Part shown: positions 10,025 to 55,803 of the stretch, piece after piece
Numbering within the stretch: the first letter of the stretch is position 1
How the letters are laid out: the number at the start of each line of letters is the position of its first letter
Assembly: GCA_039630415.1 (NCBI GenBank)
Contig: JBCNVB010000025.1
Coordinates: 75,419 to 139,418, forward strand
Origin: a bacterium
Lineage (GTDB): Bacteria > DRYD01
Length of the DNA: 64,000 nt
Direction of reading: 5' to 3'
The notes under the pieces: generated by a model
Seen by the model: only the letters and a program-made list of their open reading frames with translations
What the model was told of the DNA's origin: nothing
Databases searched by the model: none
Program-made: the position numbers and the translations under genes

Positions 10025-10173
10025 TTCTTCAACCTAGATAGGTCAACCTTTAGAAGGTTTTTCAAAAAATTTAGCTTTTAAATTTTTTTTAAGTCAAAAA
10101 AATTAAAAATCGTGTTAGTAGTGCCTAATACTACTACTATTTTAATAAATATATCTTTATAGTAGTAGTATAA

Positions 10174-11020: not shown

Positions 11021-11024
11021 CCTA

Positions 11025-12474: not shown

Positions 12475-13872
12475 TTATAGTATTTCTCGTACATCAATAA
12501 ATCTACCAGCGATAGCTGCTGCGGCAGCCATGGCTGGACTAACTAAATGCGTTCTTCCTCCCTTACCTTGCCTGTTTTCAAAATTACGATTTGAAGTTGA
12601 AGCACATCTTTGACCATATCCCAAAACATCCGGATTCATACCTAAACACATTGAGCAACCAGATTCACGCCACTCAAACCCCGCTTCTTTAAAAATCTTA
12701 TCCAATCCCATTTTCTCAGCTTGTAGTTTAACCTGCGTAGAACCCGGTACAACCATTGCTCTAACCCTTGGATTCACTTTTTTACCCTTTACCACATTTG
12801 CAGCCTCTATTAAATCTTCTATCCTAGCATTCGTACATGAACCTATAAATACTACATCAACCTCTATATCTGTTATCTTGGTCCCTTCCTTTAAACCCAT
12901 ATACTCTAAAGCTCTTCTTGCTGTTTTTCTTTCGAACTCATCTTCTATTTCATCTAGGTAGGGTACTCTTCCGGAGATAGGTTGTACTTGAGAAGGATTT
13001 GTACCCCAAGTAATCATAGGCTCTACATTACTAACATCCATAACAAAAACTCTATCGTATTGAGCATCTGAATCGGTTTTTAATTTCTGCCAATAATCTA
13101 AAGCTTTTTCCCAGTCTTTACCTTTAGGTGCAAACTTTTTATTTTCCAAATAAGCGAAGGTTTTATCATCTGGCGAGATAATGCCTACTTTGGCACCTGC
13201 TTCTATGCTCATATTACAAATTGTTAGCCTTCCTTCAATTGATAAGTTACGAATATATTGACCTGTATACTCTACAGCGTATCCAACGCATCCTCCTACA
13301 CCGATTTTACCAATAAGTGCAAGTATTATATCTTTTGAATATACACCTTTTCCAGGAGTTCCCTCAAACCTAATTTCCATAGTTTTGAATTTTTTAGTAA
13401 GGATTGTTTGAGTGGAAAGTACTAGCTCTACTTCAGAAGTACCGATACCAAAAGCCATAGCTCCCAAAGCACCATGAGTGGAAGTATGAGAATCTCCACA
13501 AACTATAACCATTCCCGGCTGTGTAAGCCCCAACTCAGGACCAATAACATGAACTATCCCTTGGTAAGGTGAATCCAAATCGAAAAATAATATCCCCCAC
13601 TTTTTAGCATTTTCATATAGCTTGTTTATTTGTTTTTCCGCTATTAGATCTATTATTGGTCTATGTTTTGGAGTGGTTGGTACATTGTGATCAACTGTAG
13701 CTACTGTTAAGTCAGGTCTTCTAACTTTTCTATTAGCTAGCTCAATACCTTCAAAAGCTTGGGGAGACGTAACCTCATGGATATAGTGTAAATCTACGTA
13801 TAAGCCATACCATCCATCAAACTCATAAACTACATGATTTTCCCAGATTTTCTCTATGATGGTTTTGCCCAT
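12475..13872 (-). CDS. leuC: 3-isopropylmalate (or homoaconitate) dehydratase large subunit
   Basis: 465 aa. Aconitase-family Fe-S ligand context is present: [36 protein letters not shown]. Confidence 0.9.
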
Positions 13873-16733: not shown

Positions 16734-16759
16734 ATTATTAAGATTAAAATACCTGGTAT

Positions 16760-32638: not shown

Positions 32639-35266
32639 ATGAGTAGAACCAGAGAATTCATAAACCAAATGCTAGGTTATAAGTACATAGATCTCAAGAA
32701 AGTACCTAATATTCAAACATTTCCATTCTCAATTAGAATCCTTCTTGAAAACATTCTGAGAAATTATGATAACTTTAAAGTCAATGATGAACATGTTGAC
32801 TTAATAATGAACTACAACTCAAAAGATGTTCCCGATAAGGAAATACCATTTTGTCCAAATAGGATACTAGCTCAAGATTTTACGGGAGTACCTTTGATAG
32901 TTGATCTGGCTTCTTTAAGATATGCTGTTACAAAGTACAACAAACCAGCTTCAAGTGTAAATCCCATAATTCCCATAGACTTGGTCATAGATCATTCTGT
33001 AGTAGTAGAGAGTTATGGTACTTCATTTGCGTTGTATAGAAATGTTGAGCTAGAGTATGAGCAAAACAGAGAGAGGTACGAGTTTTTAAAATGGGCACAA
33101 AAGAGTTTTAAAAAATTAAGGCTTATACCCCCATCAACAGGTATCTGCCATCAGATAAATCTGGAGTATCTTTCTAGAGTAGTTTGGGAACAGGATGGGA
33201 TGATATTCCCGGATACAGTTATAGGTACGGACTCACATACTCCGATGGTAAATGGTATAGGTGTGGTGGGATGGGGAGTTGGAGGTATTGAAGCTGAGGC
33301 TGTAGCTCTCGGACAACCACTATATTTTACCTTACCAAAAGTAATAGGTCTAAAGTTGAAAGGTAGTTTACCTGAAGGGGTAAATGCTACAGACCTAGTC
33401 CTAACAATAACTGAACTACTTAGAAAATATGGTGTGGTTGGAAAGTTCGTTGAAGTATTTGGTGAAGGATTAGATTGTTTAACGGTACCTGACAGAGCTA
33501 CAATCTCTAACATGTCTCCCGAATTCGGCTCCACCATAACATACTTCCCAATTGATCAGAAGACTATAGAGTACCTAAAACTAACTAATCGACCACCAGA
33601 ATTAATAAAGCTAGTTGAAACATACGCAAAAGAAAATTTACTATGGAGAGAAGATGAGGATAAAATAGTTTACACCGATGTAATAGAGTTGGACTTAAAT
33701 AAAGTTACAACTTCATTGGCTGGTCCCAAAAGACCCCAAGACAGAATACCACTATCAAACCTCAAAAAAGTTTTCGTAGATAGCTCTGCAAGTGTTTTGA
33801 CAAAAGTTAAGGTGAATATAGGTCAGGAAGAGATAGAACTTAAGGATGGGGATGTTGTAATAGCTGCAATAACTAGCTGTACCAATACATCTAATCCATT
33901 TGTTATGTTAGCAGCAGGGCTATTAGCTAAGAAAGCTGTTCAACGAGGTTTGAGGGTTAAAAGGCATGTTAAAACTACTTTAGCACCGGGATCTAAGGTA
34001 GTAACCCGTTATCTTGAAAAAGCAGGACTATTACCTTATTTAGAAGCTCTGGGATTTTTCGTATCTGGCTATGGCTGTACTACTTGTATAGGTAACTCAG
34101 GAAGCTTGCATCCTGAAATTTCCAAAGCAATAACCCAAAATAATTTGGTAGTATCAGCAGTTCTTTCTGGTAACAGGAATTTTGAAGCCAGGATACATCC
34201 TCTGGTAAAAATGAACTTTTTAGCTTCTCCTCCAATGGTTGTAGCCTTTGCTATAGCTGGGACCGTAAACATAGACTTACAAACTGAACCTATAGGTTAT
34301 GACCCATTGGGACAACCAGTCTACCTTAAAGATATAACCCCTACTAACGAAGAAATATATGAACTTATTGAGCAAGTTGTTAAATCGGAATATTTTAGCG
34401 AAATTTACCAAGATATTCTTGAGGGCGACCAAGAATGGAAAAGATTACCTGAGTATGAAAGCGATCTTTATCCATTTGATCCCAAATCCACTTACATTAG
34501 GTTGGCTCCATTCTTTGAGGATGAATTTATGAATTCTAAACCAGAAGATATAAAGGGAGCAAGATTACTGTTGTTACTCGGAGATAGTGTAACGACAGAT
34601 CACATATCTCCTGCTGGAAGTATAAAAGTTGACTCACCAGCTGGGAAATATCTAATCCAGCAGGGTGTGGAAAGTAAAGATTTCAACTCATATGGTTCTA
34701 GAAGAGGAAATCATGAAGTAATGATTAGAGGAACATTTGCAAATGTTAGAATAAGAAATTACCTGGTGGATAAAGAAGGTGGGTATACGATAAAAGATGG
34801 TGAAATAAAGACAGTGTATGATGCATGTATGGAGTACAAAAAAGAAAACGCTCCTTTAATAGTAGTAGCGGGCAAAGAGTATGGATCTGGATCTTCTAGA
34901 GACTGGGCAGCTAAGGGTACTAGATTACTGGGAATAAAGGCCATCATAGCTCAAAGCTTTGAAAGAATCCATAGAAGTAATTTAGTTGGAATGGGTGTGC
35001 TCCCATTAGAATTCGTCTCATCTGAAGACTATAACTTCTTCCTAGAAGCAAAGCAACAACTACCATACTACTCGTTCAGTATCCTAGGAATTTCCGAAAA
35101 TCTTTACCCCAAAAAGAAGCTTAAGGTTCAAATATTCGATAGTCAAGGCAAGACCGTAAAAGAATTTGATGTTGTAATGAGGCTGGATTCTCAAGTTGAA
35201 ATAGAGTACTACAAAAACGGAGGCATCTTACAATATGTTTTGAAAGAAAAATTTTTGAGGGATTAA
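32639..35266 (+). CDS. acnA: Aconitate hydratase A
   Basis: 875 aa. Contains GTDSHTPMVNGIGVVGWGVGGIEAEA, the Fe-S Cys contexts ITSCTNTSNP and GCTTCIGNSG, and GKEYGSGSSRDWAAKG. Confidence 0.93.
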   Translation: MSRTREFINQMLGYKYIDLKKVPNIQTFPFSIRILLENILRNYDNFKVNDEHVDLIMNYNSKDVPDKEIPFCPNRILAQDFTGVPLIVDLASLRYAVTKYNKPASSVNPIIPIDLVIDHSVVVESYGTSFALYRNVELEYEQNRERYEFLKWAQKSFKKLRLIPPSTGICHQINLEYLSRVVWEQDGMIFPDTVIGTDSHTPMVNGIGVVGWGVGGIEAEAVALGQPLYFTLPKVIGLKLKGSLPEGVNATDLVLTITELLRKYGVVGKFVEVFGEGLDCLTVPDRATISNMSPEFGSTITYFPIDQKTIEYLKLTNRPPELIKLVETYAKENLLWREDEDKIVYTDVIELDLNKVTTSLAGPKRPQDRIPLSNLKKVFVDSSASVLTKVKVNIGQEEIELKDGDVVIAAITSCTNTSNPFVMLAAGLLAKKAVQRGLRVKRHVKTTLAPGSKVVTRYLEKAGLLPYLEALGFFVSGYGCTTCIGNSGSLHPEISKAITQNNLVVSAVLSGNRNFEARIHPLVKMNFLASPPMVVAFAIAGTVNIDLQTEPIGYDPLGQPVYLKDITPTNEEIYELIEQVVKSEYFSEIYQDILEGDQEWKRLPEYESDLYPFDPKSTYIRLAPFFEDEFMNSKPEDIKGARLLLLLGDSVTTDHISPAGSIKVDSPAGKYLIQQGVESKDFNSYGSRRGNHEVMIRGTFANVRIRNYLVDKEGGYTIKDGEIKTVYDACMEYKKENAPLIVVAGKEYGSGSSRDWAAKGTRLLGIKAIIAQSFERIHRSNLVGMGVLPLEFVSSEDYNFFLEAKQQLPYYSFSILGISENLYPKKKLKVQIFDSQGKTVKEFDVVMRLDSQVEIEYYKNGGILQYVLKEKFLRD

Positions 35267-35588: not shown

Positions 35589-36707
35589 ATGAAGGTAGGG
35601 ATAGTATCGAATAGTCCTGGAGAGGTTTTAGGTTGGGCAGTTCCTGCTTCCTCAATTCTCAAAAAACTTGGATTCACTATAGATTTATACCTAACACCCT
35701 GCATGTTTGCTACCAACAAAGAATACGAAGTAGCTCTGCAACACGGCCACTTTGACAAAATCTATAAACCCAAACAAACACTTTTCGAAATCTTGCTACC
35801 TCAAAAAAGATACGATCTCTTTTTCCACATGGGAGGCGATATATGGTATTCTACCAAGTTCAAAACTTCCAAACTGTATTCATACGGCTGGGGAACAAAA
35901 AGGTTAGATAAATTTTTCTGTTTATACCTTGTTCCAAATCAATACTACTACAGAAAACTAACTGAACGTGGTATACCATCAAGTAAAATAGTAAAAATAA
36001 AAGATCTTGCCTTTGAGAAGCTCAAAAGGAAGCAGTATGATCCGAACTCCAAGTTGATAGGATTTATGTTGGGTAGTAGAGAAGTCGAATTCTGGAATTT
36101 ACTAGAAATTTACCTTCAAACAATTGCTTTAATGCCCAAGGACTATGAATACATATTTTTTGTTTCCCCTTTTATTTATCAAGATGATAGTTTTGAACAA
36201 AAACTTCAAGGCATAATGAAAATGTATGAGGGTTATCGAGTGAAGTTTTTGGTAAACGAAGTTGAAAAGTATGAAGTTATGTCGAAATTGAGATTAATGG
36301 TAACTATTCCTGGTACTAAAACGAATGAAGCTGGTTTTTTGGGTATTCCTCAGTTGGTGATACTACCTTTGCAAAAACCTGAGCATATTCCGGTATGGGG
36401 TATAGTGGGTTGGCTAGATTTTCTTGGAAGTTTTGGAAAAAAAATAAAAAGCTATTTTGTAATCAAATACGCTGAAAAAAATCTACTAAACAAAAAAAGG
36501 TACATAGCTATGCCAAATATGGTTTCAAACTCTGAAATTGTTCCCGAAATGATCGATAAAATAACTCCTGAAAAACTTTGTCAAGTCTTACTTAGTATGG
36601 TAGAAAATAGTGAATTGTTAAGTAGAATATCTAATGATCTAGTAAGAGTTTATGATGAGTGGGAATATGAAGCTATCTCTTTTCATGATTTTGTACGTAG
36701 GATATGA
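35589..36707 (+). CDS. Glycosyltransferase distantly resembling lipid-A-disaccharide synthase (LpxB/GT19-like)
   Basis: 372 aa. N-terminal VSNSPGEVLGW corresponds to the AGExSGD segment of LpxB. Mid-region YSYGWGTKRL...YLVPNQYYYRKL corresponds to SPxxWAWR...PFE..Y. This is a by-eye comparison only. Confidence 0.4.
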   Translation: MKVGIVSNSPGEVLGWAVPASSILKKLGFTIDLYLTPCMFATNKEYEVALQHGHFDKIYKPKQTLFEILLPQKRYDLFFHMGGDIWYSTKFKTSKLYSYGWGTKRLDKFFCLYLVPNQYYYRKLTERGIPSSKIVKIKDLAFEKLKRKQYDPNSKLIGFMLGSREVEFWNLLEIYLQTIALMPKDYEYIFFVSPFIYQDDSFEQKLQGIMKMYEGYRVKFLVNEVEKYEVMSKLRLMVTIPGTKTNEAGFLGIPQLVILPLQKPEHIPVWGIVGWLDFLGSFGKKIKSYFVIKYAEKNLLNKKRYIAMPNMVSNSEIVPEMIDKITPEKLCQVLLSMVENSELLSRISNDLVRVYDEWEYEAISFHDFVRRI

Positions 36708-36741: not shown

Positions 36742-37167
36742 ATGATAAGGGGCGTTGCTTTTATATGTGTTGGTAATTCTGCAAGAAGTCAAATAGCAGA
36801 AGCAATAGCAAAGAAAATAGCTAAAGAAAAAGGATTAAATATTAAGGTTTACTCTGCAGGGATACAACCTTCTGGATTTATTAATTCTATGGCAATAAGA
36901 ATTTTAGAAGAGGATAATATTCCGATAGAGGATCAGTATTCAAAAGGTATGGATCAAATTCCCATAAATGACATAGATTTAGTTATCTTTGTATGTGAAG
37001 AAAGTTATTGTCCTTCGACAGATGAAGTTTTCAAAGGTAAGAAAATACTGCATTGGTATTTACCTGATCCATTTTCTTACGAACAATTCTACTTTATAAG
37101 GGAAAGTCTAAAGTCAAGGATAAATGATCTGTTTGAAAGACTAGATGCAAAGGATATCCAAATCTGA
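36742..37167 (+). CDS. Low-molecular-weight phosphatase family protein (ArsC-type arsenate reductase or protein-tyrosine phosphatase)
   Basis: 141 aa. P-loop is FICVGNSARSQIAE (CX5R-S). A conserved Asp lies near the C-terminus (YLPDPF). Confidence 0.75.
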   Translation: MIRGVAFICVGNSARSQIAEAIAKKIAKEKGLNIKVYSAGIQPSGFINSMAIRILEEDNIPIEDQYSKGMDQIPINDIDLVIFVCEESYCPSTDEVFKGKKILHWYLPDPFSYEQFYFIRESLKSRINDLFERLDAKDIQI

Positions 37168-37266
37168 AGAACCAAATTATTAGAGGGGTATCGTTATTGC
37201 AAGATAAAATTTGCTAAATCAGCAAAATTAATGGGGTTACCTCTGCAAGGAGGAGGTGACGCCGTA

Positions 37267-40200
37267 ATGAATTCAAAAGGTTTATCATTATTGGAACTGA
37301 TAGTGGGTGTATTGATAATAACGTTGATGTTTGCTATATCAGTACAGCTGTTTTATACTTTTATCAGCATCCAATATTTGATAGATTCAAGGATACATCA
37401 ACATATAGAACAGTGTTTTTTGAATTGAAGAAAGCGATAAAAGAAGCGAATGAGGTGAAGAATATATACAATTTAGCAACTGTAAGTGCGATATACTTGC
37501 AGGTAAGAAATAGAATATATGGTTATAGGTTAAGAAGGGACTTACCTATATTACAAAGAAGGTTAGAGAAATCGGTAGATGGTGGATATGCATGGTATTT
37601 TATACCCAATACGGAAAATATAGAGGACATAAGATTTATTGCCTCTATTCCATATTCACAATCGAAAGCTGTATTTGTGAATATCAAAATGGGATATTCA
37701 AAAGCAAGATTTACAAATACTCATAATTTTGTAGCTTTACTGAGATCTAAGTATTATTCTGAGTCTTCTCAAAATTATGCTATTGCAGCTACAATACGTA
37801 CAGTAATCCAGGACGGTAATAACCGCTATTTCAGAGATCATCTGCAGGTTATTTTCTCACGTAATCTAGATAATCTTCCCAATCCTATAGTTTATTCTTT
37901 ATTTCGTGTTGTTCCTGATTATAATGTATTTTACAAAACAATAGATTCATTTATCAATTCATACAATCTGATTTTTACTATTAGTCCTTACAATCCTCCC
38001 TCAGGTTATGATACATATATGAATATAGCAAAAATAACAAGGCAAAGTATTTATTCTCCGATGAGTTATGAAATGGTTACGTCTATGTCAAGTTATGATC
38101 CTACTTATCATTTAGGGAGAAGTCCTTATTTAAATGCTGAAGAGGAAGCAGATGCCATCAAAGCTATAGTAGTTGGTAATTACATATACACTGTGTATTC
38201 GACAATGGAAATAATATATACCCCCTCGGCAAATTCTTCAAGTAGTACGCATCATTATTCTATATATTTAGCATATAAGAAGCATATTCCAAATTACTGG
38301 AATACGAATATCTCTACTCCTTGGGTGAAGAGAAAGATATTTAGTATAGCTGTTCCAGAATATACAGGTAACCTGCCAATACCGATTATGAGATCAGTAA
38401 GAATGGTATATGGTCAAGTGGGGAGTAACAGATTCCATGTGACATTTATTTTGGAAAGATTAATCGGGGCTGGAACTGCGGTTTCTAGAAGGGATATATA
38501 CTATTTAGCTAGTCCAGATGGAGTAAACTGGAGTGTGGTAAACATAGATGATAGTTTGGGGCAAGATAATATATACCCTTTAGATGTAATACCTCTGTTT
38601 GGTGATTTAAATGGGACTACAAACAAGCTACATATGGTTTACATAAATGCGACTAATCCGAGTGATTTAATGAATAGCTCACTTGAGCTGGCTTATACTT
38701 CTACGTCAAACGGTGTGGCATTTGTTGCACCTCAAATATGGAACACATGGTCTCAGAATCCGCCACTTTATAGAAATTTCATTGCTACCTCGATTCAAAT
38801 GAGGGGCTATGCGGATATGGAGGCTTTTATACATAACGGACAGATACATGTGGTTATAGTTAATAGACATGTTCAGTTTGTATTACATATTGCGGGGACG
38901 AATATTATTAGGACGATTTATGCAAATCTAGTGTACCTGGTTAAAGGGAATTTTAATCAATCAGCAATATTTAATGCTTATCTTCATCCACAGTATGGCT
39001 TACCAGGACCAGCAAAGTTTTTCAAAAGTGTAGCCTTGTGTGTGCTAGATCAACAAAATACGACGTATGTTCATATTTTCATGGCTGATGTAGATAGAGG
39101 CTTGTATTACATACGGGATACTGCTAACGGTATAATAGTTTCTGATTTGAATAGCCCTAGCTACGGAGGAATAACTATAATGCATTCGGATAGATATATA
39201 GGCAGCCTAGATTGTGCCTTTAAGAATGAATATATACATGTGTCCTACATAATGACAAATCCACCACTTATAGATTCTAATGGTAATCGTTATTTTGAGA
39301 TGTATAACCCAAATAACCTAATTAAACTTGGCTATACTAGAATAAGAACTAGTAATCAAGTATTTGTAGATTTGGAGATTAGTAGTTATTTTGCTAATAC
39401 GAATGGAAGTATACATGGTGATGGTGTAAGAATGCAAGATTTCCTTCGTCTTGGTTCAGTTTATCTTAATACTCTTAGGCAGTGCTTAGTTTTAACTGAT
39501 TATCTTCACATTATTGCAATAAAAAGAGCATTTTACACTTATAATGGAGCACCTGTACATGTAGGCCATCCTTTTGTAGAAGTGATACATATAAATCCTT
39601 TCTCTGAACCCCTGAATACTATGGGATCTTTTGATGCTAAAAATATTCATCCTGTGGATTCCAACAGACTTTTACACATTAACGGTTGTGATGCAAATGC
39701 TGTAACATATGTTGATACATATAGGGGTAATATAAAGGTAATACTCCCCAATCGTTCAGAAACACAGGTTATACCATATTCTACTGGTGTAGAAGCTAGT
39801 GACATAAAGGTAGTAAATGAATACATATACGTAGCATATGCAGAGGCAGTAAGAGGAAGAGGGGATGTTGTGAGGTTAGCAATAAGTAGGGATAAAGGTG
39901 AAAGTTGGTCTATACTAGACTTCAATGCTCCACGGTTTGGAATGGTACTACCGTCGCGTCAAGAAATTAGAGAAATAGCAATGGAGGTGAAAGAAAACCT
40001 AATTAACATAGTGTATTCTTCGGCTGATTCACTTTCATATACCTACCTAATAAAGAGAGTAAAACATGGTCCGGGTCAATCATTTAGTGAGGCTTATATA
40101 CCAGTTACAAATTTCGAAGCAGAACGTATAAAAACTCAACTGGATAATCAAAACAGATTGCATATTTTGGGGCGCTCAGAATACCGTATTCATGGATTTT

Positions 40201-40517
40201 TCTACGTAATTTTTGATAACAATACTAACACATTTGTTGATAATGGTTTAGGAGGTTTAACGTTAACATCTTTACCACAATATTCACAAATGTTTAGTAG
40301 AATTGGACCTGAAGCGGATATATTTGTAGAACCAAATGGAGATGTTGTGATAGTAGCAGAAACATGGAATCCACATAATAGGACGGAGGTGTATTTGTTC
40401 AAAAGGAGTCAGGGTATGTGGTTACCTCCAGTAAGAGTACCTTTTGGACCCGTGCAATTCCAACCAGGATTAGTTGAAGGAATGAATGTAAGGGCATTAA
40501 AGATAAACAGATTCTAG
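37267..40517 (+). pseudogene. Giant type IV pilin-like protein, paralog A, interrupted by a 1-nt frameshift near 37340
   Basis: SD GGAGGAGGTG sits 8 nt before ATG 37267. The leader is MNSKG|LSLLELIVGVLIITLMFAIS, in the frame of ORF 37231-37428. Homology to paralogs B and C continues in the frame of ORF 37413-40517, already from about 37338 (ISTAVLYFYQHPIFDRFKDTSTYRTVFFEL against C ISSTAVLYFYQHPTLDKFKQVSAYRTVFFEL). Adding one base restores a roughly 1083-aa protein. Confidence 0.65.
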
Positions 40518-40552
40518 AGTATTCTCGAAAGTAAGATATATAAGATGAACTC

Positions 40553-41341
40553 ATGTTAAGTATATCCATAATATTGCCAGTTTTTAATGCACAAAATTTC
40601 ATACAACACACTCTAGAACAAATAGTATCTCTTTTACGAAGTAAATCTGATGTCGACAAGGTGCAAATAATATTGGTCAATGATGGAAGCCAAGATCAAA
40701 CGCTACATGTTATGAATGAATTTATTCAGAAAAATTTTTATGACTCCAAGTTTTCATTCAATATGATATCCTACTCTAAGAATAGAAACATAGGATATGC
40801 ATTACGAAGAGGAATACAAATAGCTAAAAACGATATCATATTTATGGTTGATTGTGATTTGCCTTTTGGAATTGAGGTGATTTCAGATTCACTTCAGTTT
40901 ATAAAGGATTATGACCTTATATCTGTTGATAGAACTAAGAGAAAGGATTCCTATATAGTTCCATTGCATAGAGCTATTCTTCATGTAGGCCTTATTAAAG
41001 TGATAAAATTAATGTTTGGGAATGCGGTTGAGGGACTGGATGATTTTGTAGTTGGATTCAAGGTTATAAAAAAACATCTACTTGAAAAAATACAGGATTA
41101 TCTGTCTTCTGATACTTCTTTGTTTCATTTTGAAATTCTGCTCTTTACCAAATTAATCAATAGCTATGAAAAAAAGTACAAAATGTTTTTTTTATACCCT
41201 AAATACAACCCAAAAGCAAATCATTACTCAACCTTCACTCCTTTAAGAATTGTACGATACGTATTCAAGGTACTTATTGAATTGATTAAAATAAGGCTCA
41301 AGTTAGCAAAAATTATGAGAGAATACAACAAAAAACTATGA
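40553..41341 (+). CDS. Family 2 glycosyltransferase (polyprenyl-phosphate sugar synthase-like)
   Basis: 262 aa. Contains ISIILPVFNAQNFI, VNDGSQD and MVDCDLPF (DxD) motifs. Confidence 0.75.
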   Translation: MLSISIILPVFNAQNFIQHTLEQIVSLLRSKSDVDKVQIILVNDGSQDQTLHVMNEFIQKNFYDSKFSFNMISYSKNRNIGYALRRGIQIAKNDIIFMVDCDLPFGIEVISDSLQFIKDYDLISVDRTKRKDSYIVPLHRAILHVGLIKVIKLMFGNAVEGLDDFVVGFKVIKKHLLEKIQDYLSSDTSLFHFEILLFTKLINSYEKKYKMFFLYPKYNPKANHYSTFTPLRIVRYVFKVLIELIKIRLKLAKIMREYNKKL

Positions 41342-42627
41342 GTAAAGAAATACAATTAGAGTTTGAGGAGATTGACATAGATGGAAGTTCTATTTCGTAC
41401 CATAATTCTAGGTTAATAAAGTGCTTTGGAGTTTTACCAACTGAAAAAGCTATTGTTAAGCCAATAAAAAAGCAAAGAAACTTTATAGAGTGTATTCCAT
41501 TAGAAATAATATCCAAATCAGCGTATAGAGTAGATTATATCGAAGACCATTTCCTATCTTGCTCTCCGTGGCAAATAGCAAAATATGAATACCAAATAGA
41601 TATGAAAAGGAGTATACTAAGAAAAATTTTTGGTTTCGATATTGAACTTTTGCCTTGTTCAAAGATTACTGGATACAGGACAAAAATGGAGTATTGCATA
41701 TACTTGGATGGAATTGCTTATTTAGGGCTTTACAGAAGAGGAACTCATAAAGCTAAGTGGAAACTCGAAAAAGGATGCGTTTTAGCTCCTTCAAACCTTA
41801 ACTCTTTTGCTTTGGATATAATCTCTAGAATGAATGATTTATCAAACTATACCAAACTTTCTTCTATCAAAGGAATAGCAGTTAGACAAAGCTATTCATC
41901 TATGCAAAGTATTAATTTAATTTGCTCAATATTTGTATCAGAATATATTGATCCATCAAGTCTTAGGATACTATATCAAAACTTACAGGATTTAGTAGAT
42001 TTTGACAAGGGTATATTCTTGTTTTATTCAAATCCTAAAACTCCAGCTTACACGTTTGATGAATGCTTGTTTCATATGGGTTTAGATAGGCTTGAACAAA
42101 AGATACATGAATTAAAGATTGTTTATGGCCCCAAATGTTTCTTTCAAAATAACGTGGAAATGTTTGAGAAAGTGATATTAGATATGATGGAGTTTGTTAA
42201 TGGACAAAGTTTGGTAGATTTATATTGTGGAGTGGGTGTTATAGGATTAGCACTATCAAAAAAAGCAGAAAAAGTTTTAGGTGTGGAAATAGTTCAAGAA
42301 GCCGCAGAATTTGCAAAATTGAACTCGCAAATAAATCAAATACACAACTTCAATATCGTTAATATTCCTGTTGAAAATATTGATGAATCCTACCTTAAGC
42401 CTATAGTAGTTGTAGATCCTCCGAGAAATGGTTTACACCCAAGGGTTATAAAAGCTCTTTTGAAGTATAAACCGGAAAGGATAATATATCTTTCTTGTAA
42501 TCCTGTAACACAAGCTAGAGACTATAAAATCCTCAAGGATTATTATGATCTGGAATTTTTCAGAGGCTATGATTTTTATCCCAATACACCTCATGTAGAA
42601 AGTTTATTGGTACTCAAGGGAAATTAA
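41338..42627 (+). CDS. SAM-dependent RNA (uracil-5)-methyltransferase, TrmA/RlmD family
   Basis: 429 aa. Contains VDLYCGVGVIGLALS (SAM motif I), VVVDPPRNGL and IIYLSCNPVTQARD (catalytic Cys context). I did not see the N-terminal 4-Cys Fe-S cluster of RlmD. Confidence 0.8.
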   Translation: MSKEIQLEFEEIDIDGSSISYHNSRLIKCFGVLPTEKAIVKPIKKQRNFIECIPLEIISKSAYRVDYIEDHFLSCSPWQIAKYEYQIDMKRSILRKIFGFDIELLPCSKITGYRTKMEYCIYLDGIAYLGLYRRGTHKAKWKLEKGCVLAPSNLNSFALDIISRMNDLSNYTKLSSIKGIAVRQSYSSMQSINLICSIFVSEYIDPSSLRILYQNLQDLVDFDKGIFLFYSNPKTPAYTFDECLFHMGLDRLEQKIHELKIVYGPKCFFQNNVEMFEKVILDMMEFVNGQSLVDLYCGVGVIGLALSKKAEKVLGVEIVQEAAEFAKLNSQINQIHNFNIVNIPVENIDESYLKPIVVVDPPRNGLHPRVIKALLKYKPERIIYLSCNPVTQARDYKILKDYYDLEFFRGYDFYPNTPHVESLLVLKGN

Positions 42628-42702
42628 GACTGGAAAGACTAAATTAATAGGGGGATCCAAGCTATCAAATCATTGAAAATATCCCTAAGAGAGGTGTTAA
42701 GC

Positions 42703-45700
42703 TTGTTAGGTAAAGTATTATCACGAAAGGGTATATCATTATTGGAATTGATAGTAGGGGTAGTTATACTAGGATTGGTATTTTCAATATCATCCACGAC
42801 AGTTTTTTATCTATATCAACATCCTATGCTGGATAGATTTAAACACACCTCGGCATATAGAACAGTATTTTTTGAGTTAAGCAAGATGGTAAAGGAAGCA
42901 AATGAAGTGAAAAACATATACAATACGTCAGCGGTAAGTGCAATATACCTGCAAGTAAGAAATAACTTATATGCTTATAGGATAAGAAGAAATGTGCCGA
43001 TAGTACAAAGGAGATTGGAAAAATCTACGGATGGAGGTCATAGTTGGTTTATATTGTCAAATACTGCAGGAATTGAGGATATAGTGTTTAGAGCAACAAC
43101 TCCTTATCAAAATGCGAAAGTGGTATTGGTATCAATCAAAATGAATAGTGTATCCAAAAAGCTGTTAACGAATCATGAATTTGCTGTTTTGTTAAGGAAA
43201 AAGCATTCATATCAAGCCGGAGGAGGTAGTGGTGGAGGAGGTGGTGGCGGTGGTGGGGGTGGAAGTACAGACCCAATAACAGGACAGTATATTTTCTCTG
43301 GAATGATGAGAAGATTAACAACTACTTCATCAGGTAACTGGATTGTAAGCTACGGTATACAATTGGTAACAGGAAGTAGTTCAACTTCTTTTGGTTTACC
43401 ATCAACTATTTATTCTTACTCTATTTCTCAACTAATCCATGCTAATGATCCATTTCCATACTCAAACATAGATACCTTTATAAATACGGCTAATAATACA
43501 CAGAATATAGCTTTTCCAATTCTTTCTGTTCCTGATAATATAAGACCTATGTCGTATACACCAAGAACTATGTATAGATTTACAAGGCCTAGTAATAGTA
43601 GTCAGGTGACGGGTCAGGTAGTGAGTAATATTCAGGAATTTTTCCCTTCATATGGTAGTGCAAGGTTATCGGATATGAGTCCGAACCAGGATCCTGATAC
43701 ATTTGAGTTAATAGTAGTTGGTAATTATTTGTATACGGTATATGCTGTAAAGGAAATAGTATATGATCCTCAACCTTCTACGAGCTATACTAGATACTCA
43801 AATTCTATTTATTTTGCATATCGGAGAAATGTACCTAATTATTGGCAAACGAATACAAGAGTGTCATGGGTAAAGAGGAGGATATTTTCCATAGTAAGCA
43901 CTGAAAGTACAAGTACACCACTGACAACTGTAAATTACAACATTATCTCTGTAAGGATGGTGTATGGGCAAGTAGGAACAAATAGATTCCATGTAACCTT
44001 TATTCTCGATACTAACAACACTAATCCCAATCCGCAAACAAGAGATATATACTATTTGGGAAGCCCAGATGGAATAAATTGGACATCAAGAAGTATAGAT
44101 GATCAATTTGCAAGTGATAATATATATCCTCTTGCGGTGGTACCTTTAGTAGGGAATATAGGTGGTAATCCGGATACTCTACATTTGGTGTATACTTTGA
44201 GTAATCTTAGTAACCCTCAGCAAGCATCAATTGGTTATACATCTACAAGTAATACCATCAACTATAGAACACCAGAGTTATGGAATGATAGTACTTCGAT
44301 TGGTTTGCGACCTTTATACAGGGGAACTAGCAGTCTACCATTTTATATAAACAATTTTATAGATATGGAAGCGGTAATATTCAACAATGAGATACATATA
44401 GCAATAGGTTGTGAATCAATAACAGTTCCTTCAAACCCTTCAATAAGAGCAAACCTGGTATACATGGTAAAGAGTAATGTTAATAGTGGTGCAGTATACA
44501 ATAACTACTACAATCTTGATGCTGTTAGGTTTAGGAGTGTAACTATTTCACTAGGTAGATTCGTAGGTATTGATTTTGTAAATATATTCGCTGCTGGCTT
44601 AAATAGAGGTCTACATTACATCAGAGCTGATATAAATTCAATAAGAAGTATGGATCTAAATGTCCAACAAGGTTTTGTACTACCTGATTTCAATACTACA
44701 TATGTATGTAGTTTAGATTCAGTATATGCTGGTGGATATTTACATGTTTCTTTCATAAGTACACCATCTGGTAATGTCCAGTCAGGTACCTTTAATCCAG
44801 GAATACAATTATCACTAGATTACATTAGAATATCACATCCTAACCAACCTTATCAAAGGATAGCAGGTAATACCATCAGTGCTAATTTAACAGCGAACAA
44901 TAATAGTGTTGATAACCAAGCTTTACCTTCAGTGTATCTATCATATGCATTAAGGCAGGCAATAGCTGTATCAAATTATCTCCATATACTGTTTATAAAT
45001 CAATCAATTGGTGAAGTACTATATATAAATCCTATGAATGCTAGTTTACCTTCCAGTATGTCTTTTGATACAATAGCTGTTCATCCAGTAGATAGGTCCC
45101 TTAGAATAAATACTTTAAGTTTTGATAATTCAGTTATTAGTTATAGTTGTTATAATGGTAGTGGTCCGCCTTCTGCACTTGATACTCGTATAGGTACTCT
45201 CAAAGTAATATTAGCTAATCGAGATATTACTGAAGCGGATGGTAATAGGAATGTTAGTACAATGTTTGTAAATTCTGATGGTTCTAGAACTTGCGGATAC
45301 TATAATGATGTGCAGGTAGTGGGTAATGCGATATACGTAGCATATTCAGAGCTATTGAGTCCATCGATGTTAAGGTTAAAGATGGCAGTGAGTAGGGATA
45401 ATGGACAAACATGGCAAACATCGGTAGTAAATAACTCTGATAGTGGATGGCACATAGATTTAAAAGTTAGAGGATCTATAATAAATATAACTCACTCGGA
45501 TAGTTACGGTAGGCTGATGGTAACTAAAAGGGTAGGAAATAATTGGGTTAATTTTCAACCCCCAAATCAAACGAATAATGTTTTGAATAGAGCATTTTTA
45601 GATAATCAAAATAGATTACATATACTTAGCTTTTCTTCGGTGTACTTCGCTCGTACTGTTACTCATTCAAATCTTGTGTTTAGCCCACCTATAGCTTATT

Positions 45701-46017
45701 ACAGAGTCTTTGATAATAATACAAATACTTTCCTAACAAATACAGGATTGGTAGGAGATGATCTAATGTCAGTACCTATACATTCACAAATGTTTAGTTC
45801 GATAGGAACGTATGGAGACATATTTGTTCAACCGGATGGGACTGTTTTAATACTGACGAATGCCACTCCAGCAGGAGAAACATATGCTTCTGTGTATTTG
45901 CTTGTAAGGGATAGTAGCGGAGTATGGAGACAACCTATACCTATTAATTTCGGGATTGGAAGTTCTACCTCATTCCTACGATATGAAACACTTCATCTGA
46001 GAATTAATAGGTTTTAG
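42703..46017 (+). CDS. Giant type IV pilin-like protein, paralog B (prepilin leader, pilin-like domain, poly-Gly linker, Asp-box/propeller-like module)
   Basis: The ORF is open from 42673. TTG at 42703, 6 nt after GAGGTG, gives the leader (M)LGKVLSRKG|ISLLELIVGVVILGLVFSI, colinear with the ATG-initiated leader of paralog C. Asp-box-like STDGGHSW lies at 43024-43047 and SRDNGQTW at 45391-45414. The Gly linker is at 43219-43266. Confidence 0.75.
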   Translation: MLGKVLSRKGISLLELIVGVVILGLVFSISSTTVFYLYQHPMLDRFKHTSAYRTVFFELSKMVKEANEVKNIYNTSAVSAIYLQVRNNLYAYRIRRNVPIVQRRLEKSTDGGHSWFILSNTAGIEDIVFRATTPYQNAKVVLVSIKMNSVSKKLLTNHEFAVLLRKKHSYQAGGGSGGGGGGGGGGGSTDPITGQYIFSGMMRRLTTTSSGNWIVSYGIQLVTGSSSTSFGLPSTIYSYSISQLIHANDPFPYSNIDTFINTANNTQNIAFPILSVPDNIRPMSYTPRTMYRFTRPSNSSQVTGQVVSNIQEFFPSYGSARLSDMSPNQDPDTFELIVVGNYLYTVYAVKEIVYDPQPSTSYTRYSNSIYFAYRRNVPNYWQTNTRVSWVKRRIFSIVSTESTSTPLTTVNYNIISVRMVYGQVGTNRFHVTFILDTNNTNPNPQTRDIYYLGSPDGINWTSRSIDDQFASDNIYPLAVVPLVGNIGGNPDTLHLVYTLSNLSNPQQASIGYTSTSNTINYRTPELWNDSTSIGLRPLYRGTSSLPFYINNFIDMEAVIFNNEIHIAIGCESITVPSNPSIRANLVYMVKSNVNSGAVYNNYYNLDAVRFRSVTISLGRFVGIDFVNIFAAGLNRGLHYIRADINSIRSMDLNVQQGFVLPDFNTTYVCSLDSVYAGGYLHVSFISTPSGNVQSGTFNPGIQLSLDYIRISHPNQPYQRIAGNTISANLTANNNSVDNQALPSVYLSYALRQAIAVSNYLHILFINQSIGEVLYINPMNASLPSSMSFDTIAVHPVDRSLRINTLSFDNSVISYSCYNGSGPPSALDTRIGTLKVILANRDITEADGNRNVSTMFVNSDGSRTCGYYNDVQVVGNAIYVAYSELLSPSMLRLKMAVSRDNGQTWQTSVVNNSDSGWHIDLKVRGSIINITHSDSYGRLMVTKRVGNNWVNFQPPNQTNNVLNRAFLDNQNRLHILSFSSVYFARTVTHSNLVFSPPIAYYRVFDNNTNTFLTNTGLVGDDLMSVPIHSQMFSSIGTYGDIFVQPDGTVLILTNATPAGETYASVYLLVRDSSGVWRQPIPINFGIGSSTSFLRYETLHLRINRF
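43219..43266 (+). repeat. (GGN)n glycine-codon tract encoding GGGSGGGGGGGGGGGS
   Basis: The sequence ggaggaggtagtggtggaggaggtggtggcggtggtgggggtggaagt is a G-rich island in an AT-rich gene. It sits at the junction between the conserved N-module and the large C-module of paralog B. Confidence 0.85.
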
Positions 46018-46100
46018 TAGTTATCTATTAGGGAAATTAGAATCTGAAAAGCTAAAATTAATTTGGAGAATCTAGTTTATCTTGAAAAGGGGGGTTAATA

Positions 46101-49100
46101 ATGCTAGATAAAGTAAAATTACAAAAGGGAATATCGTTATTGGAGTTGATAGTAGGTGTAGTTATATTGTTATTGATATTTTGGATATCGTCCACAGCAG
46201 TTCTATATTTTTATCAGCATCCTACACTAGATAAATTCAAACAAGTATCTGCATATAGGACAGTATTTTTTGAGTTAAACAAGGTGATAAAGGAAGCCAA
46301 TGAGGTGAAAAATATCTACAATACATCAGTAGTGAGTGCAATATACTTACAAGTAAGGAACGACTTATATGCTTATAGGATAAGAAGAAATGTGCCGATA
46401 GTACAAAGGAGATTGGAAAAATCTACGGATGGGGGGCATAGTTGGTTTATATTGTCAAATCCTGCAGGAATTGAGGATATAGTGTTTAGAGCAACAACTC
46501 CTTCTCAAGATGCGAAAGTGGTATTGGTATCAATCAGAATGAATAGTGTATCCAAAAAGTTGTCAACAAATCATGAATTTGCTGTTTTGTTAAGGAAAAA
46601 GCATTCATATCTAGCTGGAGGAAGCGGAAATAATGACCCATTAATAGGCGAGTATATTTTATCTGGAATGGCTAGAACATCTTATCCTTATTTTTATCAT
46701 TCTAACCCTAGAGCTATTGATTACAATATACAATTAGTAACAGGAAATAGTTTAAATTCTTTTGGTATGCCAAGAACTATCTATTTTTACTATCATCCTT
46801 ACGATAATGATCCTCCACAAAACCATTTTCCACACTCAAACATAGATACCTTCGTAAACATGGCTGATAATACATATAATCTTGTTTTCCCCATCCTTCA
46901 TTTTAATACTAATTCGCGTAATAATTTTTTTTCTCGAGGAGCTACAACAGATGAACCAAAAGTTATGTGTAGATTTATGAAGTCTAGTAATAATTCTCAA
47001 ATAAATAGTTACATGGCTAGTAATATCCGGGAGTTTTCACCTTCATATGATTTAGGATCAGTATCTGCTGAACTGATTGTAGTTGGTAATTATTTATATA
47101 CAGTGTATGCTGTAACGGAGGTTGTGTATGATCCTCAAGCTGGAGCACCAGGTGCTACTAGGTACTCACATTCAATATATTTTGCTTATAGAAAAAATGT
47201 ACCTAATTATTGGCAAACGAATACAAGAGTGTCATGGGTAAAAAGAAAAATATTCTCCATAAATGAACCTTCACATATTTCACATATAGGAGATAGGCAA
47301 TACAGTATTAGTTCAGTAAGGATGGTATATGGGCAAGTAGGATCAAATAGATTTCATGTAACATTTATTCTGGATAGTCATGTCTTTACTTTAGGCCATG
47401 ATAACGATACTAATCGAATTCTACATACAGATATATACTATCTAGGAAGTCCAGACGGTATAAATTGGACTGGGAGAAGTATAGATGATCAATTTGGAAA
47501 TGATAACATATATCCGCATAGGGTAGTACCTTTGATAGGAAATATAGGTGGTAACTCGGACACTCTACATATAGTGTATGCTTTCGGAAATCCTTATACA
47601 TCAATCGGTTATACATCTACGAGTAACACTATCAACTATAGACCACCGCAAGTATTGAATTACGGTAGTTTATACCCTTTATACAAGGGAGGTGTCAGTG
47701 TACCATTTTACATAGTTGATTTTTCTGATATGGAAGCTGTAATATACAATAATGCGATACATATAGTGATAGGTTGTAGATCACTACTAACGGTTCCCCT
47801 ACACTTTTCAATAGCAAATTTAGTATACATGGTAAAAAATAACGTTAACACTAGTGCAATATACAATGACTACTTCAATTCTAGGGCTGAAATTTTTAAA
47901 AGTGTAACTATTTCAGTAGGTAGATTTGCAGGCACTGATTTTGTAAACATATTTGCTGCTGGATATAGAGATGGATTACATTATATTAGAGCTGACATAA
48001 ATTCAATAATAGGCATGGACTTGTATTCACAAGGTTTTGAACTAAACGAATTTCGAGATCTTTTTATATCAAGTTTGGATTCAGTATATGCTGACGGTTA
48101 TTTACATGTTTCTTTTCTAATAGGTTATTGGGATACGAGATTTCACCAACCTCCACCTAGTGAGTTAGCTCTAGACTACATAAGAATATCACATCCATAT
48201 CAACCTTACCAAAGAATAGCAAATCGAAATATCAGTTTGAATTTAACATTAAGCAATAATACTGTTGATTACCAACCTTTGGATTTAGGAACTGTATCTA
48301 GTCCATTTATGCAAGCAATAGCAGTGTCAAATTATCTCCATATATTGTTTATAGATGATTTAATTGGTGAGGTTATGTATATACATCCTAGAAGTACTAA
48401 TCTGCCTTCTACGAATTCTTTTGATACTATTGCTGTTCATCCAGCTGATAAACCCATTAGAATAAATACTCTAAGTTCTGATAGCGGAGTTATTAGTTAT
48501 AGTTGTTATAATCCTTATATTCCTTATAGTCATCTTAATAATTATGATTTTATATATGCTTCACTGAATCCTTATGCAGGTACTCTTAAAGTAATTCTGC
48601 CTAATCACGACATTACTGAAGTCGACGGTAATAGAAATGTAAGTACAACGTTTATGGATTCGGAAGGTGCTAGAACCTGTGGATACTACAATGATATACA
48701 AGTAGTAAATAACGCAATATATGTAGCATACTCTGAATTGGTCATAACTCCATCAAAGAGGTTAAGGTTAAAAATGGCAGTGAGTGAGGATAATGGACAA
48801 ACTTGGAAAACTTCAGTAATAAATAACTCCGATAGTGCTTGGTTCATAGATTTGAAAATCAAAGGAAGTATAGTAAACATAACACACTCAGATAGTCAAG
48901 GTAGATTAATAGTAACCAAGAGGATGGGTAATAGTTGGGTTAATTTTCAGCCTCCAAATCAGACGGTTAACGTTTTGAATAGAACATTCTTGGATAATCA
49001 AAATAGATTACATATACTTAGTTTTTCTTCTATGTACTTTGCTCATAGTACTGCTTATAATAATAGGTATAGCCCGCCTGCTACTTATTACAGAATTTTT

Positions 49101-49418
49101 GATAATAACACAAATACTTTCCTAACAAGTACTGGTTTGGTAGGAGATAATTTGATATCTGTACCTATATATTCGCAAACGTTTAGTACGATAGGGACGT
49201 TTGGAGACATATTTGTCCAGCCAGATGGAACTGTTTTGATATTAACAAATGCTGTTCAATGGAGTCAGCCGTGGGGGCTAGATTATCCTTCTGTATATTT
49301 ATTTATAAGAGATAGTAACGGAGTTTGGAGACAGCCTATACCTATTAATTTCGGATTTAGGTATAATAACACGTTTTTACGAACGGAAGCAATTTACCTA
49401 AGGATAAATGGATTATAA
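46101..49418 (+). CDS. Giant type IV pilin-like protein, paralog C
   Basis: 1105 aa. SD GGGGGG lies about 7 nt upstream. Leader is MLDKVKLQKG|ISLLELIVGVVILLLIFWI. STDGGHSW is in the N-module and SEDNGQTW lies at 48783-48806. It is colinear with paralog B over its whole length. Confidence 0.8.
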   Translation: MLDKVKLQKGISLLELIVGVVILLLIFWISSTAVLYFYQHPTLDKFKQVSAYRTVFFELNKVIKEANEVKNIYNTSVVSAIYLQVRNDLYAYRIRRNVPIVQRRLEKSTDGGHSWFILSNPAGIEDIVFRATTPSQDAKVVLVSIRMNSVSKKLSTNHEFAVLLRKKHSYLAGGSGNNDPLIGEYILSGMARTSYPYFYHSNPRAIDYNIQLVTGNSLNSFGMPRTIYFYYHPYDNDPPQNHFPHSNIDTFVNMADNTYNLVFPILHFNTNSRNNFFSRGATTDEPKVMCRFMKSSNNSQINSYMASNIREFSPSYDLGSVSAELIVVGNYLYTVYAVTEVVYDPQAGAPGATRYSHSIYFAYRKNVPNYWQTNTRVSWVKRKIFSINEPSHISHIGDRQYSISSVRMVYGQVGSNRFHVTFILDSHVFTLGHDNDTNRILHTDIYYLGSPDGINWTGRSIDDQFGNDNIYPHRVVPLIGNIGGNSDTLHIVYAFGNPYTSIGYTSTSNTINYRPPQVLNYGSLYPLYKGGVSVPFYIVDFSDMEAVIYNNAIHIVIGCRSLLTVPLHFSIANLVYMVKNNVNTSAIYNDYFNSRAEIFKSVTISVGRFAGTDFVNIFAAGYRDGLHYIRADINSIIGMDLYSQGFELNEFRDLFISSLDSVYADGYLHVSFLIGYWDTRFHQPPPSELALDYIRISHPYQPYQRIANRNISLNLTLSNNTVDYQPLDLGTVSSPFMQAIAVSNYLHILFIDDLIGEVMYIHPRSTNLPSTNSFDTIAVHPADKPIRINTLSSDSGVISYSCYNPYIPYSHLNNYDFIYASLNPYAGTLKVILPNHDITEVDGNRNVSTTFMDSEGARTCGYYNDIQVVNNAIYVAYSELVITPSKRLRLKMAVSEDNGQTWKTSVINNSDSAWFIDLKIKGSIVNITHSDSQGRLIVTKRMGNSWVNFQPPNQTVNVLNRTFLDNQNRLHILSFSSMYFAHSTAYNNRYSPPATYYRIFDNNTNTFLTSTGLVGDNLISVPIYSQTFSTIGTFGDIFVQPDGTVLILTNAVQWSQPWGLDYPSVYLFIRDSNGVWRQPIPINFGFRYNNTFLRTEAIYLRINGL

Positions 49419-55308: not shown

Positions 55309-55803
55309 TTAATTAGTATTGTTTTGTTCAATATCTGATTGCTGAGGAATAGGTGGTACAAAAGAATTAGTAAGTCCAAAAACGGATAGAAGTAAGCTAG
55401 TTGAAGTTTGATATCTTTTACCTTTATAGTACCACACAACAGTTATCTTAATTTCTATTACGTTTGGTACAGTGGTTGTTTGAATGGGGCTGAGAATTAC
55501 ATCATAATTTCTTGATCTGGCTATTGTAAGATTATTGAGTTCAATTTTACCTCTAAGCATTTCTTGTGCTTGATCTGAATATGAGAAAGTATTATTTGAT
55601 GGATTATAAGTTATATACATTTCGGTGTTATTCAGTATTTCATTTGAAGCAAAAATAAGGATATTGTTGACGTCTATGTAGTATTGATTTATGTCACTTA
55701 CTTTAGTTCCCCAATAAACAATTGAGTAGAGTGATATAATCAAAGCGAATGCTATTGAAAAAGAAATCATTACTTCAACTAGGGTTAATCCTTTTTTGGA
55801 CAT
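55309..55803 (-). CDS. Type IV pilin / pseudopilin-like protein
   Basis: 164 aa. N-terminus MSKKG|LTLVEVMISFSIAFALIISL fits the prepilin N-methylation pattern, with Gly at -1, Glu at +5 and a following hydrophobic helix. Confidence 0.75.
   Translation of the reverse strand: MSKKGLTLVEVMISFSIAFALIISLYSIVYWGTKVSDINQYYIDVNNILIFASNEILNNTEMYITYNPSNNTFSYSDQAQEMLRGKIELNNLTIARSRNYDVILSPIQTTTVPNVIEIKITVVWYYKGKRYQTSTSLLLSVFGLTNSFVPPIPQQSDIEQNNTN

Follow-up and report, generated by a model that had tools for sequence, protein, structure and literature searches.

A small family of very large pilin-like proteins with predicted Asp-box propellers in a hot-spring bacterium of the Calescibacteriota

We analysed a window of 64,000 nt (the whole stretch of DNA examined here; contig JBCNVB010000025.1 of assembly GCA_039630415.1, positions 75,419 to 139,418) from an uncultivated hot-spring bacterium of the phylum Calescibacteriota. 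Three neighbouring large genes on the same strand, which we call A, B and C, encode proteins that begin like type IV pilins, with a conserved N-terminal module (N-module), and continue through a variable region into a C-terminal module predicted to form Asp-box β-propellers. The window has a G+C content of about 33% and encodes flagellar fliH/I/J and one diderm-type envelope gene, which fits Calescibacteriota (PMC4791363, PMC11696919).

Genes B and C are intact and display the full layout, which is given here with the protein of C as the reference for residue numbers:

42703–46017, + strand: gene B; TTG start, 1104 aa, intact open reading frame (ORF)
42943–43180, + strand: tract of B nearly identical to C, N-module residues ~81–160; counterpart in C at ~46341–46580
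43219–43266, + strand: Gly/Ser linker of B, GGGSGGGGGGGGGGGS, with the N-module on one side and the rest of the protein on the other; Tandem Repeats Finder reports 43219–43247
46101–49418, + strand: gene C; 1105 aa, intact ORF; the protein used for modelling
46101–46616, + strand: C residues 1–172; leader MLDKVKLQKG, hydrophobic helix ISLLELIVGVVILLLIFWISSTAVLYFY and conserved module
46422–46445, + strand: C residues 108–115, Asp-box STDGGHSW, the single box inside the N-module
46617–47054, + strand: C residues 173–318; GGSGNN linker and the most variable region of the family, modelled at a predicted local distance difference test (pLDDT) of 20–30
47055–48230, + strand: C residues ~319–710, predicted first propeller; about six four-stranded blades, all β-hairpins, pLDDT mostly 75–90
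47448–47468, + strand: conserved short Asp-box SPDGINW of C, in the first propeller
48231–49370, + strand: C residues ~711–1090, predicted second propeller; first two blades (~709–862) poorly modelled, last four at pLDDT 65–90
48783–48806, + strand: Asp-box SEDNGQTW of C, in the last four blades of the second propeller; hidden Markov model (HMM) matches to BNR_2 proteins fall in this second-propeller part

The two ORFs are identical to the deposited proteins ABDH21_05995 (B) and ABDH21_06000 (C), which lie on a contig of 151,672 bp. B runs from the leader MLGKVLSRKG and ISLLELIVG... through the N-module, a poly-Gly linker and the variable region into its two predicted propellers. An earlier first-pass annotation of this DNA, made from the sequence by eye, had described three giant paralogues of one architecture, with a conserved N-module of about 160 aa, a poly-Gly linker in B and GGSGNN in C; all of these elements are present, and B and C stand as described, but A turned out to be frameshifted near position 37340, with its leader split off. 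The same annotation had put B and C at two-thirds to three-quarters identity and A further away. We measured 65% between B and C by BLASTP, at the low end of that range, and 70% in a MAFFT alignment, compared with 37% by BLASTP for both A versus B and A versus C, so that A is a genuine, more distant paralogue. The overall ratio of nonsynonymous to synonymous substitutions (dN/dS) between B and C is 0.31; they are evolving under purifying selection and are therefore real genes.

Divergence between B and C is unevenly spread. Across about 240 nt of the N-module the two genes share 92–98% DNA identity, versus 55–85% elsewhere, and the proportion of synonymous differences (pS) falls to 0.09, versus about 0.45 elsewhere, probably through gene conversion. 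In the variable region (residues ~180–300), dN/dS rises to 0.66–0.68 and insertions and deletions are frequent. Such conversion would homogenise the pilin-like adaptor of the pair while the variable region and propellers diverge, and a near-identical adaptor is what would be expected if both proteins must fit the same filament.

The flanks record how the pair arose. B and C are each preceded by some 70 nt (42610–42650 and 46025–46065) that resemble the 3′ end of the low-molecular-weight phosphotyrosine phosphatase (LMW-PTP) gene plus the spacer that precede A (37135–37190), and the duplicated unit therefore carried that tail. A motif common to the two upstream regions proved to be this relic of the LMW-PTP gene. 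A consensus scan for sigma-54 and sigma-70 promoters upstream of the genes gave fewer sites than shuffled sequence. In a neighbour-joining tree, A groups with B and C, on a long branch, which argues for an expansion within this lineage: the single gene of the relatives became three here, with A at the conserved site and B and C as a younger tandem pair.

Gene A spans 37267–40517, or 3251 nt, which is no multiple of 3, so that no single ORF covers it. It falls into the following parts:

37267–37340, + strand: A 5′ fragment; ATG start, leader MNSKG followed by LSLLELIVGVLIITLMFAIS; PS00409 match; AGGAGG ribosome-binding site upstream
37340–37341, + strand: frameshift site of 1 nt, between tca and gta; one base fewer than in B and C
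37341–40517, + strand: A main frame; remaining N-module, variable region and propeller module

The 5′ fragment reads as a class III signal peptide and the beginning of the hydrophobic helix. This leader, MNSKGLSLLELIVGVLIITLMFAIS, lies in one frame, and ...STAVLYFYQHPIFDRFK... and everything downstream lie in another; adding one base after 37340 recovers ...MFAISSTAVLYFYQHP... / ISSTAVLYFYQHP, colinear with B and C. The mechanically called ORF of the main frame begins at 37413 (GTG), and the deposited annotation, P0006, is a protein of 1030 aa with an internal start and without the pilin leader; from that length, its start would lie at about 37425. We read the frameshift as a 1-nt deletion, that is, a recent inactivating mutation, or as an assembly error. 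Programmed frameshifting was considered and rejected, because the switch of the conserved sequence to the other frame, at about 37340, coincides with no slippery heptamer. The sole U-rich heptamer (T TTT TTG, near 37414–37420) lies some 75 nt downstream, and a shift at that point would omit conserved residues. As assembled, A is therefore not a pilin.

The N-terminal and propeller modules

Proteins of this family open with a short, basic leader whose last residue is Gly; (I/L)-(S/T)-x-x-E and a hydrophobic stretch of about 25 residues come next. Several lines of evidence show that this start is of the prepilin type. First, PROSITE pattern PS00409 matches exactly in A (KGLSLLELIVGVLIITLMFAI), B (KGISLLELIVGVVILGLVFSI) and C (KGISLLELIVGVVILLLIFWI), in agreement with the earlier claim that all three N termini fit the prepilin methylation pattern, and also in the homologues P0003 and P0004. 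Second, Gly at −1 and Glu at +5 do not vary among the nine N-modules that we aligned (A, B, C, five relatives from other hot-spring assemblies and P0015, a protein with unrelated cargo); apart from B, at 85%, these modules are 29–59% identical to C. Third, the Pfam N_methyl model matched 8 of the 9, with a best E value of 5e-4. Fourth, a profile of the N-terminal region retrieves solved pilins through the leader and helix, Geobacter PilA-N at E values of 1e-4 and 5e-4 and, more weakly, PpdD, PilA, MshA and PilE1. By these features (Gly-ended leader, hydrophobic stretch and Glu at +5), the A 5′ fragment, B and C carry class III signal peptides.

Beyond the helix, residues ~45–170 of the N-module are well conserved and contain one canonical Asp-box, STDGGHSW in B and C and SVDGGYAW in A, which the first-pass annotation had not recognised as such. 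This box matches the Asp-boxes of GH74 enzymes at an E value of 0.009; single Asp-boxes are known to occur outside propellers (PMC2716378). AlphaFold places a helix at residues 13–39 of the N-module, followed by four short strands, all at pLDDT 20–30. The N-module appears again in P0015, a protein of 1404 aa from a different genome of higher G+C content (GCA_053996615.1, L006 10001–14215), which shares the N-module only, Asp-box included (E value 2e-13), carries DUF2341 and LamG in place of the propellers, and is followed at a distance of about 4 kb by a pilC-like gene. Because the same N-module is here joined to other cargo, it behaves as an independent module.

For the C-terminal part, we built a profile from six family members and used it to search 1.84 billion representative proteins. 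About 75 proteins outside the family match its Asp-box blade region, in 2–9 stretches each and with E values down to 4e-15, and the 7 of them that were scanned are BNR_2/BNR-type Asp-box proteins, some of which also match Sortilin-Vps10 or PSII_BNR. On single family proteins, matches to Pfam BNR and Sortilin-Vps10 are sub-threshold. A, B and C each contain two full Asp-boxes, one in the N-module and one in the propeller part, where shuffled sequences lead one to expect 0.01–0.05 per whole protein; those listed by the first-pass annotation (SRDKGESW, which is the propeller box of A, SRDNGQTW and SEDNGQTW) are all present. So is the conserved SPDG(I/V)NW in each of the three (SPDGVNW in A), an exact match to the published consensus for short Asp-boxes, S-x-D-x-x-x-W.

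Structure prediction, which the first-pass annotation had named as a check, points the same way. An AlphaFold model of full-length C from 6 sequences reached a mean pLDDT of 48, with an unusable N-terminal third, and a model of residues 318–1105 from nine sequences reached a mean of 67 (75–90 for residues 318–677, 65–90 for 863–1087, poor for 709–862). The latter contains about twelve four-stranded β-meanders, as counted from its DSSP string, and the C-terminal ~780 aa as modelled fit two Asp-box-type propellers of about six blades each. Foldseek searches of the PDB with both models returned β-propellers exclusively, with E values of about 1e-6 (sialidases, fucose lectins, GH74, sortilin, PL24 lyases and double WD40 propellers), but the best template modelling (TM) scores were only ~0.5–0.57, for single six-bladed targets. 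The propeller fold is therefore supported, without a close structural relative.

The earlier annotation had also seen about a dozen recurrences of an inner-strand motif. All ten of the strings it quoted are found in B, but a loose inner-strand regular expression gives 6–10 matches versus 3–4 ± 2 in shuffled sequences, and alignment of the profile with itself shows no significant internal repeat, the sole hints being the Asp-boxes, including that of the N-module. The roughly twelve-fold periodicity is therefore structural and not a sequence repeat. A His residue recurs in the first strand of many blades and is conserved across the family (FHVTF, LHIVY, IHIVI, LHVSF, LHILF, LHILS). Positions that do not vary in the propeller part are R407, D444, D462, H490, D543, R630, D660, H747, E757, D775, D865, D965, H971 and D1036.

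The proposal of sialidase-like propellers holds for the Asp-box propeller fold, which HMM matches and model both indicate, but not for the enzyme family. We rejected a true GH33 sialidase: the [FY]RIP motif is absent from A, B, C, P0003 and P0004, a PDB sequence search gave insignificant matches to BNR/sialidase chains (E values of ~1 and 2.7, the sialidase at 2.7), and structural TM scores stay near 0.5. Within the Asp-box superfamily (GH33, GH74, Vps10/sortilin, BNR_2), the family shares the canonical S-x-D-x-G-x-(T/S)-W and short S-x-D-x-x-x-W boxes, the HMM matches to BNR_2 and the Foldseek matches to sialidases, GH74 and sortilin. That superfamily offers precedents both for few boxes over many blades and for tandem propellers built from a single continuous stretch (Quistgaard & Thirup 2009, PMC2716378). 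The present family differs in having no FRIP motif, a best TM of ~0.5 per propeller and the recurrent first-strand His as a feature of its own, and a prepilin N terminus is absent from all the families compared. GH74, with tandem seven-bladed propellers, comes close in length (~780 aa) and tandem layout, but the sequence match runs through single Asp-boxes only, the module here has just two Asp-box-type motifs where GH74 has boxes in most blades, and Foldseek gave 6p2k an E value of 2e-6 but a TM of 0.24.

Family, neighbourhood and filament machinery

The family is tiny: six clusters among 5.8 billion proteins, and about 8 representatives in an exhaustive HMMER search of the 1.84 billion. A profile search with the N-module gave only two fragments, and a scan of metagenome contigs gave none. 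Neither Pfam nor NCBIfam has a model for the family. All organism-labelled members come from hot-spring metagenome-assembled genomes, two of them labelled Candidatus Calescibacterium sp.; the others are unlabelled Logan and JGI metagenome sequences. Homologues at 31–42% identity retain the full architecture. Calescibacterium is known from streamer communities at 82–84 °C, in which attachment via type IV filaments is prominent (PMC11696919). A literature search turned up neither a study of Calescibacteria pili nor one of a pilin–BNR protein.

The genes around the three copies, and the other genes of the window that bear on type IV filaments, are as follows:

35589–36707, + strand: distant LpxB-like glycosyltransferase, conserved upstream neighbour of A
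36742–37167, + strand: LMW-PTP, conserved upstream neighbour of A
40553–41341, + strand: GT2 glycosyltransferase, between A and B
41338–42627, + strand: RNA uracil-5-methyltransferase-like gene, between A and B
28435–30171, + strand: PilB/GspE-type assembly ATPase; T2SSE at 476 bits; MshEN c-di-GMP-binding N-terminal domain
55309–55803, − strand: small pilin-like gene, 164 aa, with the canonical prepilin start MSKKGLTLVEVMISFSIAFALIIS

In the relatives, the gene is single-copy and follows the LpxB-like glycosyltransferase and LMW-PTP in L001, L002, L008 and L009 (by Pfam) and in L004, where the same gene order was judged by ORF sizes; A holds that site here. A GT2 gene follows the homologue in L001 too, but not in L002 or L008. 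The most divergent member, in L007, lies elsewhere, with Fur, an AAA-ATPase-like gene and Mfd as neighbours, and we therefore attribute the shared neighbours to inheritance of gene order and do not read them as a functional operon. In L004, from Ca. Calescibacterium SKYB82, the place that B occupies in the window is taken by an unrelated Asn/Ser-rich protein of 840 aa (15379–17901) whose C-terminal part looks, by eye, autotransporter-like.

The ATPase scores 686 bits against TIGR02538 (PilB; cutoff 676) and 39 against NF053729 (cutoff 38), and is also above the cutoff of TIGR02533 (GspE). This PilB-type ATPase is a candidate for the motor that assembles A/B/C-type proteins. In the relatives L001 and L008, the conserved gene block includes a GGDEF/EAL gene, which the window lacks; together with the MshEN domain, this hints at control of filament assembly by cyclic di-GMP. 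The small pilin-like gene is solitary, with a holB-like region on one side and a yebC-like gene on the other, and it may encode a true pilin or pseudopilin.

Candidate functions

Pilins with extra domains have precedents. Modular pilins comprise more than 1,200 proteins in 264 architectures, one of which is N_methyl followed by five BNR repeats (Raynaud et al. 2021, PMC8179133); studied cases are PilB (pilin plus vWA) and PilC (pilin plus lectin) of Streptococcus sanguinis, and the most extreme multi-domain example highlighted in that survey has 860 residues (PMC8179133). As far as sequence and models tell, the present family falls under the same definition, an N-terminal pilin motif joined to a module not specific to pilus biology (PMC8179133). 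As in other modular pilins, a class III signal peptide and a small N-module are linked to a bulky non-pilus module, and the N-module is re-used with other cargo (P0015, LamG/DUF2341). Unlike in those, the cargo is ~900 residues (two propellers plus the variable region), several times the vWA and lectin modules, and the organism-labelled members, known from sequence only, all belong to one thermophilic candidate phylum. The first-pass statement that no characterised pilin has this architecture overlooked the modular-pilin concept and the catalogued N_methyl plus BNR arrangement. Because modular pilins are established and that arrangement is listed, the concept of a pilin with a propeller is not wholly new; the present family is itself undescribed, and an unusually large case of the design.

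Two other groups are instructive. PilY1/PilC tip adhesins, at ~1,000–1,200 aa, have a C-terminal β-propeller shown at the pilus tip (PMC8179133). But PilY1 is itself no pilin: it carries a Sec signal and attaches by docking to minor pilins, whereas here the propellers are of the Asp-box type and are fused to a pilin-type N terminus. A relationship to PilY1 was rejected, as A, B and C gave no match to Pfam PF05567 / IPR008707 at E ≤ 0.1. GspK, CofB and Thermus ComZ likewise combine a pilin-type N terminus with large extra domains and are thought to be tip-located (PMC8179133), but these domains are an alpha-domain, β-repeat/β-sandwich or β-solenoid, not propellers, and no sequence relation is detectable.

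We favour the reading, at a probability of roughly 0.6, that the A/B/C family consists of very large modular type IV pilin-like subunits that are built into a filament. On this account, prepilin peptidase (PilD) would cut after the Gly and might methylate the new N terminus, the hydrophobic helix would retain the protein in the inner membrane, and PilB-type ATPase machinery would then incorporate it, as a subunit of low abundance, into a type IV filament. The bulk of the subunit makes the tip its likeliest position. This would keep the propellers, the working module, at a distance from the cell, where they would most likely bind glycans or surfaces of hot-spring streamer biofilms in the manner of an adhesin or lectin; a role as glycosidase is less likely. 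Binding is favoured over catalysis because no glycosidase signature is present and because the most variable parts lie where ligand contact is expected.

Several observations weigh against this reading. The N_methyl profile, whose use as a check the first-pass annotation had foreseen, does match, but at 16–19 bits it is always under the gathering score of 21.2; NCBIfam gives no match to these proteins. In the N-module, sequence similarity to the PDB beyond the helix amounts to the Asp-box alone, and with a pLDDT of 20–30 its pilin fold is no more than putative. No Peptidase_A24 prepilin peptidase, PilC, PilM–Q or secretin is encoded within the 64-kb window, and none of the homologue loci is a pilus operon. 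The conserved glycosyltransferase and LMW-PTP neighbours hint at envelope polysaccharide biology, not pili. GspK, a tip pseudopilin, lacks Glu5, which is kept here. A diderm would need to move a subunit of ~120 kDa through its secretin. Finally, neither ligand nor activity can be read from the sequence.

Some of these points agree better with another explanation, which we regard as possible but unlikely: that these are membrane-anchored envelope proteins whose pilin-like start, cleaved by PilD or not, is an inner-membrane anchor only, with periplasmic or surface propellers that bind or trim the envelope or extracellular polysaccharide made by the products of neighbouring genes. Archaeal sugar-binding proteins with class III signal peptides offer a likeness. 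The LpxB-like glycosyltransferase and LMW-PTP are conserved neighbours, with a GT2 gene downstream in two lineages; no homologue is surrounded by a pilus operon; the N-module was not modelled with confidence as a pilin; and most characterised Asp-box propellers are carbohydrate-active (PMC2716378). A mere anchor is, however, hard to square with a Gly(−1)/Glu(+5) pair that is invariant across distant homologues, with an N-module that bears other cargo in P0015 or with gene conversion that holds the N-modules of B and C near-identical, and the neighbourhood, which is not universal (L007), may be mere inherited order.

A bolder form of the filament reading, less probable again than the envelope anchor, has each subunit as a pilin with its own double propeller at the tip of a retractable filament, B and C sharing a homogenised adaptor; if catalytic, it would be a pilus-displayed ‘fishing-rod’ glycoside hydrolase. 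These would then be the largest pilins known, with one polypeptide doing the job of PilY1 plus minor pilins, and catalytic propellers would point to polysaccharide foraging in streamer biofilms at 80 °C, with B and C as a cargo-diversified set.

We think it improbable that the proteins serve another type IV filament machine, such as a type II secretion-like pseudopilus or a non-pilus filament, with the large module as a tip cap or cargo contact in the manner of GspK. An ATPase above the cutoffs for PilB and GspE alike, the short leaders and the existence of large tip pseudopilins (GspK; PMC8179133) would suit such a role. Yet no GspD, GspF, GspI or GspJ-like genes lie nearby, and a cargo of ~900 aa far exceeds any pseudopilin insert. 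Glu5, too, is kept here and missing from GspK-type tip subunits. That these are ordinary secreted or periplasmic Asp-box glycosidases whose Sec-type signal or anchor resembles a prepilin by chance has the sub-threshold N_methyl scores, the silence of NCBIfam and the frequency of propellers among glycosidases in its favour, but is very hard to believe given an exact 21-residue PS00409 pattern in five family proteins, Gly(−1)/Glu(+5) in 9 of 9, solved pilins retrieved at an E value of 1e-4 and no FRIP motif.

If the proteins are indeed incorporated into filaments, a diderm type IV filament machine would handle subunits of ~120 kDa, extending the size range of modular pilins, and a propeller fused straight to a pilin would offer a single-protein counterpart to the tip complex of PilY1 and minor pilins. 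There would then also be a first way to study how the uncultivated, deep-branching thermophiles of the Calescibacteriota attach in hot-spring streamers. The B/C pair offers a case of cargo divergence alongside gene conversion of the adaptor module, and defining the family, for which no Pfam or NCBIfam model exists, would improve the annotation of these genomes.

Other features of the window

Two aconitase-family systems are encoded in the window: a split pair of large and small subunits (12475–13872 and 11843–12460, − strand), which adjoins a homocitrate/isopropylmalate synthase-like gene, and a full-length aconitase at 32639–35266 (+ strand).

The DnaA-box-like sequence TTTTCCACA occurs in 13 exact copies, in both orientations, between 10185 and 10500, where about one would be expected in the whole window. 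The cluster sits in a gene-free gap of 1 kb and 26% G+C (10025–11024), with alaS on one side and an ABC permease on the other, and this gap is probably the chromosomal replication origin. The minimum of the cumulative GC skew lies nearer 22–24 kb, and gene orientation switches near 28 kb.

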